A stretch of 64,000 nucleotides of DNA, taken from the NCBI GenBank assembly GCA_046331505.1, contig JAXLQT010000008.1:11567-75566 (forward strand), in the 5' to 3' direction. The stretch comes from Acidobacteriota bacterium. Lineage in GTDB: Bacteria; Acidobacteriota; Vicinamibacteria; JAXLQT01. The notes beneath the pieces were generated by a model, which was given only the letters and a program-made list of their open reading frames with translations, searched no databases and had not been told where the DNA came from. The translations under genes were made by a program, and so were the position numbers. Below are positions 22,273 to 24,248 of this stretch, one piece after another (position 1 is the first letter of the stretch; every line of letters starts with the position of its first letter).

Positions 22273-23559
22273 TCAGCCGCGGGATGCGGCCAGATCCGCC
22301 GCGGAGGTGGAAGCAACGGCGCTCTGCCGCGCGGCGGGCGCCAAGCTCCCCGTCATGATCGGGATGGCCATCTTGCAGAGCAGCGTGAAGACCAGGAATC
22401 CGACCGAGAAGATGGCGGCGCCGATGCGCAGCTCGTGCAGGGTCGGCCGGTACTCGTAGATCTCTCCGAGGACGTCCGGGGTGAACGCCGGAATGACGAG
22501 GCCCATGCCCTTCTCGATGTAGACGCTTGCGTAGATGAGGAGGCACCCGATGTTCAGCGTCAGGACGTTCTTGCGCGTGGCGGGGATCAGGAAGAGCAAG
22601 AAGGCGGTGACGCCGCACAGGACGAAGCTCCAGGCATAGGGGACCAGGGCGCGGTGACCGTGGACTCCGACGAAGAGGTACTGGAGGTGGATCAGGTGCT
22701 CGGTGCTCGAGTAGACGTCCTTGAAGATCTCGGCCCCCAGCAGGAAGAGGTTGAGGAACATCGCGTAGGCCATCAGCTCGGCGATCTTCCAGATCGCCTC
22801 GTCGCGGATCGCGATGGGCGTGGTGCGCTGGAGGATCTGCAGCAGGATGAGCATGATCGCCGGGCCGGAGCAGAACGCCGAGCAGAGGAACCGCGGCGCG
22901 AGGATCGATGCGTTCCAGTAGGGCCGCGACGGGAGCCCCGCGTAGATGAAGGCCGTCACCGTGTGGATGCCTACGGCGGCGGGGATCGAGAACATCACGA
23001 GCGGCACGACGAAGCGCTGCTCGTAGGGCCGCCGCTGCACGCCGCGCCAGAGCAGGTGGGTGACGATGACGACGTTGAGTACGAGGTAGAGGTTCAGAAC
23101 GAGAACGTCCCACGCGAGCAGCGATCGCGGGAAGTTCATCCGGCCGATGCCGGGGATGAGGTGCCAGAAGCGCTCCGGCCTCCCCATGTCCACCGTGACG
23201 AACAGGAGGCACATCACGATGGAGCTGATCGCCAGGATCTCGCCGAGGATGGCGATCTCCTTGATCGGCTTCCAGTGGTAGACGTAGGCGGGGATGACGA
23301 GCACGACGGCAGCGGCGGCGACGCCGACGAGGAACGTGAAGTTGCCGATGTAGAACGCCCACGACACCTGGTCGCGCATGTTGGTGACGATGAGCCCGGA
23401 GGCGAGCTGGTCCCTGTAGGCGAGCCCGCCCCACACGATGAGGCCTCCCAGGAACGCGAGCCATGCCCAGTAGGCTGCGTTGCCCCGCATCACCGAACGG
23501 GTGAGCAGAGCGAGGAGCTCGAACGGGTGCGTCGGCCGGCGCGTGGGCTCCGCGGTCAT
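22273..23559 (-). CDS. NrfD/PsrC-family polytopic membrane subunit of a quinone-interacting oxidoreductase.
   Basis: 428 aa, about 10 TM helices, strong NrfD-family similarity along its length. The ATG at 23559 overlaps the stop of the repeat-spanning ORF (ATGA). Confidence 0.85.
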   Translation of the reverse strand: MTAEPTRRPTHPFELLALLTRSVMRGNAAYWAWLAFLGGLIVWGGLAYRDQLASGLIVTNMRDQVSWAFYIGNFTFLVGVAAAAVVLVIPAYVYHWKPIKEIAILGEILAISSIVMCLLFVTVDMGRPERFWHLIPGIGRMNFPRSLLAWDVLVLNLYLVLNVVIVTHLLWRGVQRRPYEQRFVVPLVMFSIPAAVGIHTVTAFIYAGLPSRPYWNASILAPRFLCSAFCSGPAIMLILLQILQRTTPIAIRDEAIWKIAELMAYAMFLNLFLLGAEIFKDVYSSTEHLIHLQYLFVGVHGHRALVPYAWSFVLCGVTAFLLFLIPATRKNVLTLNIGCLLIYASVYIEKGMGLVIPAFTPDVLGEIYEYRPTLHELRIGAAIFSVGFLVFTLLCKMAIPIMTGSLAPAARQSAVASTSAADLAASRG

Positions 23560-24248
23560 CCCCGGGGCTCCGGGAAGAGCGGGTCCGTGCCCGCTTGCGG
23601 ATCGCGGACGCGGGCCGATCGGCATTGCGGTCTGTAGGGCGGGGGCTTGTCCCCCGCCGGTTTGCTGGTCGCGGGACGGGGGCCGGATGGGCATTGCGGT
23701 CTGTAGGGCGGGGGCTTGTCCCCGCGCGGTTTGCTGGTCGCGGGACGGGGGCCGGATGGGCATTGCGGTCTGTAGGGCGGGGGCTTGTCCCCCGCCGGTT
23801 TGCTGGTCGCGGGCGGGGGCCCGATCGGCATTGCGGTCTGTAGGGCGGGGGCTTGTCCCCCGCCGGTTTGCTGGTCGCGGGGCGGGGGCCCGATCGGCAT
23901 TGCGGTCTGTAGGGCGGGGGCTTGTCCCCCGCCGGTTTGCTGGTCGCGGGGCGGGGGCCCGATCGGCATTGCGGTCTGTAGGGCGGGGGCTTGTCCCCCG
24001 CCGGTTTGCTGGTCGCGGGGCGGGGGCCCGATCGGCATTGCGGTCTGTAGGGCGGGGCTTGTCCCCCGCCGGTTTGCTGGTCGCGGGGCGGGGCCGATCG
24101 GCATTGCGGTCTGTAGGGCGGGGGCTTGTCCCCCGCCGGTTTGCTGGTCGCGGGGCGGGGGCCCGATCGGCATTGCGGTCTGTAGGGCGGGGGCTTGTCC
24201 CCCGCCGGTTTGCTGGTCGCGGGACGTCGGCGCCATCATCATCATCAC
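23556..24248 (-). other. ORF spanning the repeat array (230 aa repetitive peptide), coupled at both ends. Real versus fortuitous is unresolved.
   Basis: GTG-ATGx4 start overlaps the upstream TGA (TGATG). Its stop overlaps the NrfD ATG (ATGA). The peptide has 23-aa repeats (RDQQTGGGQAPALQTAMPIGPPP) and passes through all three repeat frames via the 1-nt indels. Confidence 0.25.
23612..24232. repeat. Tandem array of 9 x 69 bp, each unit containing a GC-rich palindrome (GTAGGGCGGGGGCTTGTCCCCCGCCGGTT).
   Basis: Read directly from the sequence. Nine near-identical 69-bp units with a few 1-nt indels. The stem GGCGGGGG/CCCCCGCC has a CTTGT loop. The array lies between the FeS-subunit stop (24245) and the NrfD start (23559). 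Confidence 0.95.

Follow-up and report, generated by a model that had tools for sequence, protein, structure and literature searches.

A probable cluster of head-to-tail GTAG-type REPs in the Fer4-NrfD spacer of an Acidobacteriota respiratory operon, with a long open reading frame as its likely by-product

Results

The DNA considered here is a 64-kb stretch (the window) from an uncultured Acidobacteriota MAG, and the features of main concern belong to a small respiratory operon within it (Table 1). At the position of the tetrahaem cytochrome gene, the apparent first cistron, orthologous operons carry a gene for a 260-aa Paired_CXXCH/C7-like protein. The 4Fe-4S dicluster (Fer4) subunit encoded next is 308 aa long, equal to NCBI MFN7972555.1, and has a twin-arginine-like N-terminus; a Pfam search at 24245..25195 returned Fer4_11 together with related families. 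Its gene ends with the TGA at 24247..24245 (-), and in the alignment its C-terminus, KFYYFYGL-stop, corresponds to KFYYFYGI-stop or GV-stop of the orthologues. The gene for the NrfD/PsrC-type membrane subunit, which closes the operon, starts with the ATG at 23559..23557 (-), and its product is identical to NCBI MFN7972554.1 (428 aa; homologues span 400-428 aa). A ribosome-binding site, GGAG at 23568..23571, stands 8 nt 5' of this ATG, and the orthologues likewise have GGAG or GAGG directly 5' of theirs. The gap between the Fer4 and NrfD genes is 685 nt here, against 9, 11, 9 and 10 nt in four orthologous operons; in a fifth it is 124 nt, with an unrelated palindrome inside. The repeat array described below is absent from all five of these orthologous junctions.

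Table 1. Positions of the features at the two array-bearing loci, in window coordinates
Feature	Position	Strand	Basis
NrfD/PsrC-type membrane subunit gene, last gene of the operon	22273..23559	-	Pfam NrfD, E 1e-36
ORF of 230 codons, GTG start, judged a non-coding by-product of array 1	23556..24248	-	ORF listing, codon-position GC, homology and protein look-ups
Unique spacer tail: small hairpin (GCGGG..CCCGC) and NrfD ribosome-binding site	23560..23614	-	sequence
Array 1, head-to-tail, 8.9 units x 69 bp	23615..24223	-	TRF, 96% match
GTG-(ATG)4 / (TGA)4-TGG microsatellite	24233..24248	-	sequence, frame-stop list
4Fe-4S dicluster (Fer4) subunit gene, upstream cistron	24245..25171	-	Pfam Fer4_11, E 4e-19
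Tetrahaem (4 x CxxCH) cytochrome gene, apparent first cistron	25155..25883	-	translation, GC3 0.84
Array 2, REP core as in array 1, head-to-tail, 10.8 units x 42 bp	48349..48798	+	TRF, unit list

Each unit of array 1 combines one GTAG-type REP with a C-rich spacer of ~44 nt. Read on the sense strand, the REP is GGCGGGGG-ACAAG-CCCCCGCC and is followed by CTAC, that is, GTAG on the complement; the stem is 8 bp, all G/C, the loop is 5 nt, and each hairpin folds at -17.9 kcal/mol, the first of them beginning 38 nt past the Fer4 stop. The units measure 69, 67, 68, 69, 69, 68, 69 and 69 nt, plus one partial unit, and TRF additionally detects periods of a higher order, 206 and 208 bp, on the arrays. 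The REP core GGCGGGGGACAAGCCCCCGCC has 20 matches in the window compared with 0.02 expected, and CTAC stands 3' of it in all 20 units of the two arrays. A G/C-rich palindromic stem-loop with an unpaired GTAG at the end of its stem, for which we took a palindrome of 20-40 bp and a stem of 6-13 bp as the standard, is the very anatomy by which GTAG REPs are defined in Di Nocera et al., 2013 (PMC3733652). The repeat is probably a selfish hairpin element of a known kind, and this identity had escaped an earlier note on the locus made from the sequence alone. A CRISPR array was considered and rejected: the spacers are themselves repeated, with 96% identity.

The REP core of array 1 recurs in a second array between cox3 (47717..48343) and cox4 (48871..49119), which were assigned through Pfam (COX3 and COX4_pro) and carry consecutive NCBI accessions. 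Its orientation relative to transcription is that of array 1, the nine REP copies of array 1 all lying on the minus strand and the eleven of array 2 all on the plus strand, without inverted partners. No ORF is coupled to both neighbours of array 2; the continuation of the cox3 frame stops 50 nt 5' of cox4, and the frames other than that of cox3 run on into cox4. Together with a degenerate solo copy at 52342..52362, the two arrays account for all REP copies in the window.

Outside this genome the exact core was found 125 times, at no fewer than 111 loci of other genomes and phyla whose flanks are otherwise unrelated, with CTAC directly 3' in 112 of the 125 occurrences. The 25-nt REP GTAGGGCGGGGGCTTGTCCCCCGCC is identical in several phyla, and in other MAGs the exact core is spread over 5-12 contigs per genome. 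In a Myxococcota MAG (L075), GTAG REPs, head-to-tail arrays included, lie on both sides of a Y1_Tnp gene (RAYT, IS200-like; Pfam E 6e-12) whose product has the motifs HVHLVL and YVLSNPV. A tblastn search of our 64-kb window for a RAYT gene, using this L075 protein and a second probe, gave nothing significant, and no Rfam family matched anywhere in the window at the gathering threshold. Head-to-tail arrays of the same REP elsewhere have periods of 27-205 bp, a multiple of 3 in 3 of 13 cases; the orientations of single REPs that lie there between co-directional genes, 16 versus 17, show no bias, which is weak evidence given the crude GC3-based gene caller behind it. A metagenome scan for an orthologous array with the non-REP spacer of array 1, GCCCTACAGACCGCAATGCC, returned one chance match in unrelated low-GC coding sequence and no such array.

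The earlier note had singled out the 230-codon ORF that spans array 1 and overlaps both neighbouring genes, and its description of this frame holds throughout. The ORF starts GTG-(ATG)4 over the Fer4 TGA, where the sequence reads TAC GGA CTG TGA in the Fer4 frame and GTG ATG ATG ATG ATG GCG in that of the ORF, and its stop overlaps the NrfD ATG as ATGA (the 3' end reads GGG G-ATGA-CC). Indels shift it through all three frames of the repeat, so that it passes RDQQTGGGQAPALQTAMPIGPPP, then RPANRRGTSP..., then ATSKPAGDKPPPYRPQC..., and a frame-by-frame list of stops confirms that all three sense frames are free of stops across the array. The (ATG)4 run, which had been called unusual, is the sole A+T-containing trinucleotide run of at least four copies within the 64-kb window. 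In the frame of the ORF this microsatellite provides five successive start codons and in the Fer4 frame four tandem TGA stops, the latter overlooked before; it is missing from the orthologous junctions. No Shine-Dalgarno sequence precedes the ORF start. Also overlooked was that the frame of NrfD itself is open through the array, back to a GTG at 24318 (a 681-aa ORF, 22273..24318), with in-frame AUGs at 23625, 23694 and 23763 upstream of the NrfD start.

The ORF is open because stop trinucleotides are missing from the sense strand of the repeat unit, and any tandem array of such a unit stays open in all three frames, however long it is and wherever indels fall. This property is common in the present sequence: on a given strand, no stop trinucleotide is present in 59% of shuffled versions of the unit or in 47% of the full set of 69-nt windows taken from it, and elsewhere in the 64 kb, runs of 887, 649 and 612 nt are free of stops as well. 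GC at the three codon positions is 0.745/0.688/0.788 in the ORF, compared with 0.65/0.47/0.89 in Fer4 and 0.60/0.43/0.94 in NrfD, and is flat in every frame of the array. No homologue of the ORF product was found at E <= 1e-3 among 5.8 billion proteins, Pfam gave no match to it, and under none of five choices of start codon does it occur in the protein collection, which has both Fer4 and NrfD. The Fer4 and NrfD accessions are consecutive, and from this adjacency we judge that NCBI annotated no CDS between them. The phase shifts between units arise from indels, each of which lies in a G/C homopolymer run. We rejected a protein-coding gene on the flat codon-position GC, the frame shifts between units, the lack of a homologue or Pfam match and the lack of NCBI annotation.

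The sense RNA of array 1 is rut-like in composition (45% C, 29% G, 5.7% U). The centroid fold predicted for the complete region (z = -5.1) retains its hairpins, and the hairpins of both arrays persist in the predicted folds. An intrinsic terminator was also considered and rejected: the hairpins are followed by CUACAGACC, without a U-tract, and a terminator scan of the array finds none.

Discussion

We believe, with a probability of roughly three in four, that array 1 is a cluster of GTAG-type REPs in which one REP and the ~44 nt of DNA next to it have been copied head-to-tail into about nine units within a spacer that normally measures 9-11 nt, and that the ORF across it is a by-product without a selected protein. 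The array itself is far beyond chance and the open frame across it is not; the overlaps at the two ends of the ORF are, in our view, largely coincidental. Of the readings that the earlier note had left side by side, the fortuitous stop-free GC-rich repeat is the one favoured by the stop-free unit, the flat codon-position GC, the want of any homologue and the short orthologous gaps, and the low-complexity linker polypeptide finds no support.

As for how such a cluster might have arisen and what it might do, the REP would have arrived by RAYT-type single-strand transposition and expanded afterwards by slippage or unequal recombination. If the array is co-transcribed with the operon, its nine RNA hairpins of -18 kcal/mol each might, by analogy to enterobacterial REPs, block 3'-to-5' decay in the manner of classical intercistronic REPs and possibly attenuate transcription, which in turn would make expression differ between the periplasmic subunits, encoded upstream, and the membrane subunit, encoded downstream, with NrfD translation starting at its own GGAG-ATG. 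The cluster probably acts as a set of intercistronic RNA hairpins.

We note a few observations that sit uneasily with the ORF being a by-product. The periods of both arrays, 69 and 42 bp, are divisible by 3, for which the chance is ~1/9; the stop-free CTAC orientation is on the sense strand in both; the joint chance of the bracketing, start over stop at one end and stop over start at the other, is 0.3-3% by a rough, post hoc estimate; and the (ATG)4 run has no equal in the window.

Let us assume, instead, that the ORF is translated in the manner of a MIRU into a peptide that has no function of its own. Ribosomes would re-initiate on the AUGs at the Fer4 TGA and hand over to NrfD at the ATGA, and such a relay would keep NrfD translation coupled and the 685-nt C-rich RNA covered against Rho-dependent polarity, with relay-breaking variants purged; we regard this scenario as unlikely in both respects. 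The geometry of the ends suits it (TGATG/GTGA at the start, ATGA at the end), and there is a precedent in MIRU, which insert in such a way that their internal ORF is coupled to the gene behind it at a spacing of -4 nt (PMC12548453, PMC3184786), yet array 2 lacks bracketing overlaps and no Shine-Dalgarno sequence lies ahead of the ORF start. The divisibility by 3 of both periods would fit a relay, too, but arrays of the same REP elsewhere show no preference for such periods, and single REPs, as far as the crude gene caller can tell, show none for one orientation. The RNA is rut-like, and the predicted fold places the NrfD start region in local structure that translation could open; NrfD nevertheless keeps its own GGAG 8 nt upstream, as its orthologues do. 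In addition, the phase of the ORF hangs on four single-base homopolymer indels, and were these assembly errors, the AUG-started frame would be the NrfD frame. The NrfD GGAG, array 2 without comparable overlaps and this dependence of the phase on indels likewise weaken the coupling device proposed in the earlier note. A bolder version, to which we would give rather less credence, has the REP cluster tamed as a translated relay in which ribosomes re-initiating at (AUG)4 after the FeS stop cross the insert to the ATGA and shield the RNA from Rho. That this relay doubles as a contingency switch, with slippage in G/C homopolymers or changes in unit number shifting the phase and so tuning membrane-subunit stoichiometry, seems to us just as doubtful. 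If true, Acidobacteriota would have arrived independently at a MIRU-like solution, with a RAYT-type REP as the starting point.

The same indels raise the question of whether the assembly can be trusted here. The REP insertion could be real while its copy number and the phase-setting indels are errors in a 600-bp near-perfect tandem repeat of a metagenome bin, and indeed every length variant (units of 67, 68 and 41 nt) has lost bases from a homopolymer run of G or of C. Short-read assembly does break at such arrays, as is seen at the cox3 locus, which is present in SRR26348421 and where an independently built de Bruijn (Logan) contig comes to its end within the first REP. Nonetheless, variants are shared by adjacent units, in array 1 by units 7-8 and in array 2 by units 6-7 and by units 8-10, and these shared variants, together with the 206 and 208 bp periods, look like a real duplication history; the genes that were checked are intact, with COX1 matching the whole of its Pfam domain and both NrfD and Fer4 at full length. 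We hold a partial artefact of this kind to be improbable. Least credible of all would be a real Pro/Gly/Gln-rich low-complexity polypeptide, either as a linker or periplasmic protein of its own, 230 aa long, or as an N-terminal extension of NrfD via the 681-aa ORF. Long ORFs do exist in both frames, the three in-frame AUGs do precede the NrfD start, and REP-encoded protein segments of 43-82 aa are known in other species (PMC3733652). Against these stand the three frame changes, which leave no repeat sequence kept, the missing coding signature in GC3, the empty protein and Pfam searches, the absence of the segment from orthologues, NrfD homologues of 400-428 aa that start at the annotated ATG, and the fact that PGAP called neither product; we consider this possibility close to negligible.

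Returning to the REP cluster as the preferred reading, the nearest known systems are the GTAG-type REPs and their REP/RAYT systems or REPtrons, reportedly described by Nunvar in 2010 and by Bertels and Rainey in 2011. With these our arrays share the G/C-rich stem-loop with an 8-bp stem and an unpaired GTAG at one end, the extragenic position between co-directional genes near the 3' end of the upstream ORF, the occurrence in multiple copies dispersed over many genomes, the association with a Y1 (IS200-like) RAYT in L075, and the tandem repetition of REP plus flanking DNA in clusters. They differ in being purely head-to-tail, with 9 and 11 copies; in the literature this arrangement is described as under-represented, most REPs being inverted dimers (REPINs, BIMEs). 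They also differ in that the host is an Acidobacteriota MAG and that the 64-kb window holds no RAYT gene, the latter counting against the REP assignment. The part of the 2013 survey available to us (PMC3733652) names no Acidobacteria among the hosts of GTAG REPs and reports TIRYTs (TIR-associated transposases) there instead.

Array 1 also resembles MIRU (Supply et al., 1997): it, too, consists of intercistronic tandem units within the range of 40-100 bp in an operon of a GC-rich bacterium, is missing at the orthologous sites of relatives, and contains an ORF whose ends overlap the flanking stop and start (-4 nt ATGA coupling). The host, however, is annotated as Acidobacteriota, another phylum, the core is a GTAG REP hairpin, nothing points to a relationship in sequence, the ORF changes frame between units, array 2 is without overlaps and the downstream NrfD has its own Shine-Dalgarno sequence; we do not claim membership in MIRU for array 1. 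The enterobacterial REP/BIME elements of malE-malF and hisJ-hisQ share with array 1 the placement of stable hairpins between genes for periplasmic and membrane components, presumably within one mRNA here. The work on these intercistronic elements reportedly goes back to Newbury and Higgins in 1987 and Stern in 1988. Enterobacterial intercistronic REPs keep 3' exonucleases from degrading the mRNA upstream of them and give the genes on either side different levels of expression (in part PMC3184786). In BIMEs, which bind IHF and gyrase, successive REPs point in opposite directions; the copies here are all direct repeats, those of each array on one strand, and we rejected a BIME assignment.

Our analysis documents head-to-tail GTAG REP arrays of unusual length that lie, in an uncultured Acidobacteriota, inside two respiratory operons. 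With this locus it might be convenient to test if REP arrays between cistrons adjust the stoichiometry of membrane-complex subunits, or need translational cover against polarity. It also calls for caution, as tandem REP clusters in GC-rich genomes give long frames with convincing start and stop overlaps, and such frames could pass for genes in their own right or for an N-terminal extension to the gene that follows. At the present locus even one antisense frame is open (23480..25252, +), which had not been noticed earlier.

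A GTAG-type REP cluster in the spacer between Fer4 and NrfD

The region between the genes of a 4Fe-4S subunit (Fer4) and an NrfD-type membrane subunit, spanned by a 230-codon open reading frame (the array ORF), is a cluster of GTAG-type repetitive extragenic palindromes (REPs) inserted in an intercistronic spacer. Its tandem repeat (array 1) comprises 8.9 copies of a 69-bp unit with 96% match (TRF), each reading GGCGGGGG-ACAAG-CCCCCGCC and then CTAC on the sense strand; the complementary strand has GTAG ahead of an 8-bp G/C stem with a 5-nt loop. This anatomy matches the GTAG REP super-family as set out by Di Nocera et al. 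(PMC3733652), where stems are 6-13 bp, the GTAG tag is unpaired, and the elements are associated with genes for IS200-like Y1 transposases (RAYTs) and lie mostly between unidirectional or convergent ORFs, close to the 3' end of the upstream one. In the window 20 copies of the 21-nt core are present where chance would give 0.02, nine of them in array 1 and eleven in a second array (array 2). The hairpins are stable, at -17.9 kcal/mol each, and the region's centroid fold (z = -5.1) preserves them. Array 1 is, in short, an ordinary kind of element in a less-studied host. A CRISPR array was rejected because the spacers are themselves repeated, and so was a terminator, as the hairpins have no U-tract after them; a whole-window Rfam scan at the gathering threshold matched no family. 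The window also holds a degenerate solo REP, GAACCGAGCC-GGCGGGAGACCAGCCCCCGCC-CGGC, just 3' of a gene end, which has lost its GTAG tag.

Features of the two REP array regions, with GC content by codon position
Feature	Coordinates	Strand	Description	GC1	GC2	GC3
Multihaem cytochrome gene	19555..22242	+	895 aa; Cytochrome_C7 x7, MtrC/MtrF-like			
219/438-bp repeat	20493..21891	+	75-78% match			
NrfD/PsrC membrane subunit gene	22273..23559	-	Pfam NrfD E 1e-36	0.60	0.43	0.94
Array ORF	23556..24248	-	230 codons	0.745	0.688	0.788
Array 1	23615..24223		69-bp unit			
(ATG)4 microsatellite	24236..24247	-	four TGA codons in Fer4 frame			
Tat-type 4Fe-4S protein gene (Fer4)	24245..25171/25195	-	Pfam Fer4_11	0.65	0.47	0.89
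Tetrahaem cytochrome gene	25155..25883	-	four CxxCH motifs			0.84
Dihaem cytochrome c gene	26103..27314	+				
cox3	47717..48343					
281-aa ORF in cox4 frame	48274..49119					
Array 2	48349..48798	+	42 bp x 10.8, head-to-tail			
Decayed REP copies	48768..48830		3' end of array 2			
cox4	48871..49119					
Solo REP	52342..52362	-	degenerate			

The host operon and its orthologues

Array 1 lies in a minus-strand operon of three cistrons, tetrahaem cytochrome, Fer4 and NrfD, the last of which ends the operon, since it is faced by the convergent multihaem cytochrome gene on the plus strand. MFN7972554.1, encoded on a 237,754-bp contig of an Acidobacteriota MAG, is identical to the NrfD protein. From the Fer4 stop to the NrfD ATG there are 685 nt, and in orthologous cytochrome-Fer4-NrfD operons (NrfD 81-85% identical) the gap is 9 nt in L112 and L120, 10 nt in L121, 11 nt in L119, and 124 nt in L115 (4877..5000), where a different long palindrome, the inverted repeat ggcacgtggcacgtggcaggtcgca ... 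tgcgacctgccacgcgccacgtgcc, is found. Judged from this comparison, array 1 was inserted into a junction that is normally tight and where palindromic elements seem to land recurrently. Fer4 has a conserved C-terminus, KFYYFYG-L/I/V. In L112 and L115, the orthologues inspected for it, GGAG or GAGG stands just 5' of the NrfD ATG, and in the window GGAG is retained 8 nt 5' of the ATG at 23559, so that the ribosome-binding site is intact, with array 1 upstream of it, and NrfD keeps its own Shine-Dalgarno sequence downstream of the array. The non-REP spacer gave only one chance match in JGI metagenome contigs, and for this reason the 69-bp unit looks locally generated.

The dihaem cytochrome c gene of the window is divergent from the operon, on the opposite strand, whereas orthologous operons have it upstream and in the operon's own orientation, a difference suggestive of local inversion. 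The 219/438-bp periodic repeat within the multihaem cytochrome gene consists of coding repeats of CxxCH haem-binding modules.

An open frame that is probably fortuitous

The earlier note described the array ORF as starting GTG ATG ATG ATG ATG on bases shared with the Fer4 TGA, ending across the NrfD ATG (ATGA), and crossing all three repeat frames without a stop; the ORF listing, both end overlaps (the 3' one reading G-ATGA-CC), the TRF array and the three-frame path bear this out. Units measure 69, 67, 68, 69, 69, 68, 69 and 69 nt, together with a partial unit, each change being a base lost inside a G or C homopolymer run, and it is these losses that carry the ORF through three frames. Read in the Fer4 frame, the bases of (ATG)4 are four consecutive in-frame TGA codons, versus a single Fer4 stop in the orthologues.

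All three sense frames are open across array 1, the NrfD frame back to a GTG inside Fer4 (681-aa ORF), as is one antisense frame. The unit contains no TAA, TAG or TGA anywhere on its sense strand; therefore any tandem array of it would be open in all frames, whatever the indels. Such stop-free status is found in 59% of shuffles of the unit and 47% of all 69-nt segments of the window, and the window has other stop-free stretches, of 887, 649 and 612 nt. Codon-position GC is flat in the array ORF compared with Fer4 and NrfD (Table), and equally so in the other two frames and in array 2. The array ORF has no Pfam match and no homologue among 5.8 billion proteins, and none of its five start variants is present in a 15-billion-sequence collection. 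The accessions of Fer4 (MFN7972555.1) and NrfD are consecutive, and so are those of cox3 and cox4 (...576, ...577); no CDS is therefore annotated by NCBI in either array. We consider the array ORF eye-catching and probably fortuitous.

The second array at the cox3/cox4 junction

Array 2, set between the cox3 and cox4 genes of a cytochrome oxidase operon, shares the REP core of array 1 and is oriented alike with respect to transcription; the two arrays have only AACC-hairpin-CTAC-rGACsG in common and their spacers differ. After the decayed copies at the 3' end of array 2 comes GGAGAGG, ahead of the cox4 ATG. No stop interrupts the cox4 frame from within cox3 through the array, and the frame continued from cox3 terminates about 50 nt short of cox4. 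Logan contig L123 (SRR26348421), assembled independently at the cox3 locus, ends inside the first REP unit (1598..1633), which confirms the junction of REP and cox3 TAG in raw data and shows that short-k-mer assembly breaks at these arrays and how fragile their assembly is.

Relay, attenuator or neutral DNA

MIRUs insert such that their internal ORF is coupled, with a spacing of -4 nt, to the gene that follows (PMC12548453; PMC3184786), and by the logic proposed for them translation of the array ORF might couple the Fer4 stop to the NrfD start. The bracketing of the array ORF by overlaps invites such a reading, with a joint chance, estimated post hoc, of roughly 0.3-3% (about 21% of window ATGs are followed by A, the right phase has a chance of about 1/3, and G before TGA is common, TGATG rarer), and so do the (ATG)4 run, unique in the window, the stop-free orientation of both arrays and their periods, 69 and 42 bp, both multiples of 3. 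In addition, C, G and U make up 45%, 29% and 6% of the sense RNA, and an untranslated copy might therefore be a Rho target that translation could protect. However, three observations speak against coupling as well as against coding: array 2 has no overlap-bracketed ORF; in other genomes the periods of head-to-tail arrays of this REP range from 27 to 205 bp, only 3 of 13 being divisible by 3; and single REPs between co-directional genes, called with a crude GC3-based gene caller, show no preferred orientation (16 vs 17). The weak point of the coupling reading is its phase, which hangs on four homopolymer deletions; were these assembly errors, the AUG-started frame would instead be in frame with NrfD, although variants common to neighbouring units and higher-order periods of 206 and 208 bp argue that much of the unit variation is real. 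We regard coupling of this kind as unlikely, and a MIRU-like translated relay or phase switch at array 1 as more improbable still.

For the REP cluster itself we envisage that a REP arrived through RAYT-type single-strand transposition and was then amplified together with its flank by slippage or unequal recombination. Presumably co-transcribed with the operon, array 1 might act by analogy with classical intercistronic REPs, as a barrier to 3'-exonucleases or a partial attenuator, perhaps leaving the periplasmic cytochrome and FeS subunits in excess of the membrane subunit. Array 1 could just as well be neutral selfish DNA, tolerated because it is without stops and terminators.

The REP core in other genomes

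In a scan of one genome per species, the exact 21-mer was found at at least 111 loci. Among the matches listed, hosts include Anaeromyxobacteraceae and other Myxococcota, Chloroflexota, Methylomirabilia, Planctomycetota, Poribacteria and others, and several contigs of one MAG frequently carry the core; CTAC follows it in 112 of 125 occurrences, with otherwise unrelated flanks, whereas the few Bacillota matches lack CTAC and resemble ordinary terminators. The 25-nt REP (GTAG + GGCGGGGGCTTGTCCCCCGCC) is found unchanged in MAGs from no fewer than six phyla, in many cases spread over numerous contigs of one MAG. REP families are usually regarded as lineage-specific, and this breadth suggests that a RAYT-REP pair is very conserved or else that the REP has spread horizontally. 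One locus in a Myxococcota MAG (L075, 4413..5312) is a REPtron, a RAYT gene with flanking REPs: a 173-aa ORF (4504..5025) with HVHLVL and YVLSNPV motifs (Pfam Y1_Tnp, IS200-like, E 6e-12) has GTAG hairpins on both sides, two REPs preceding it and two head-to-tail arrays, with periods of 52 and 44 bp and opposite in orientation, following.
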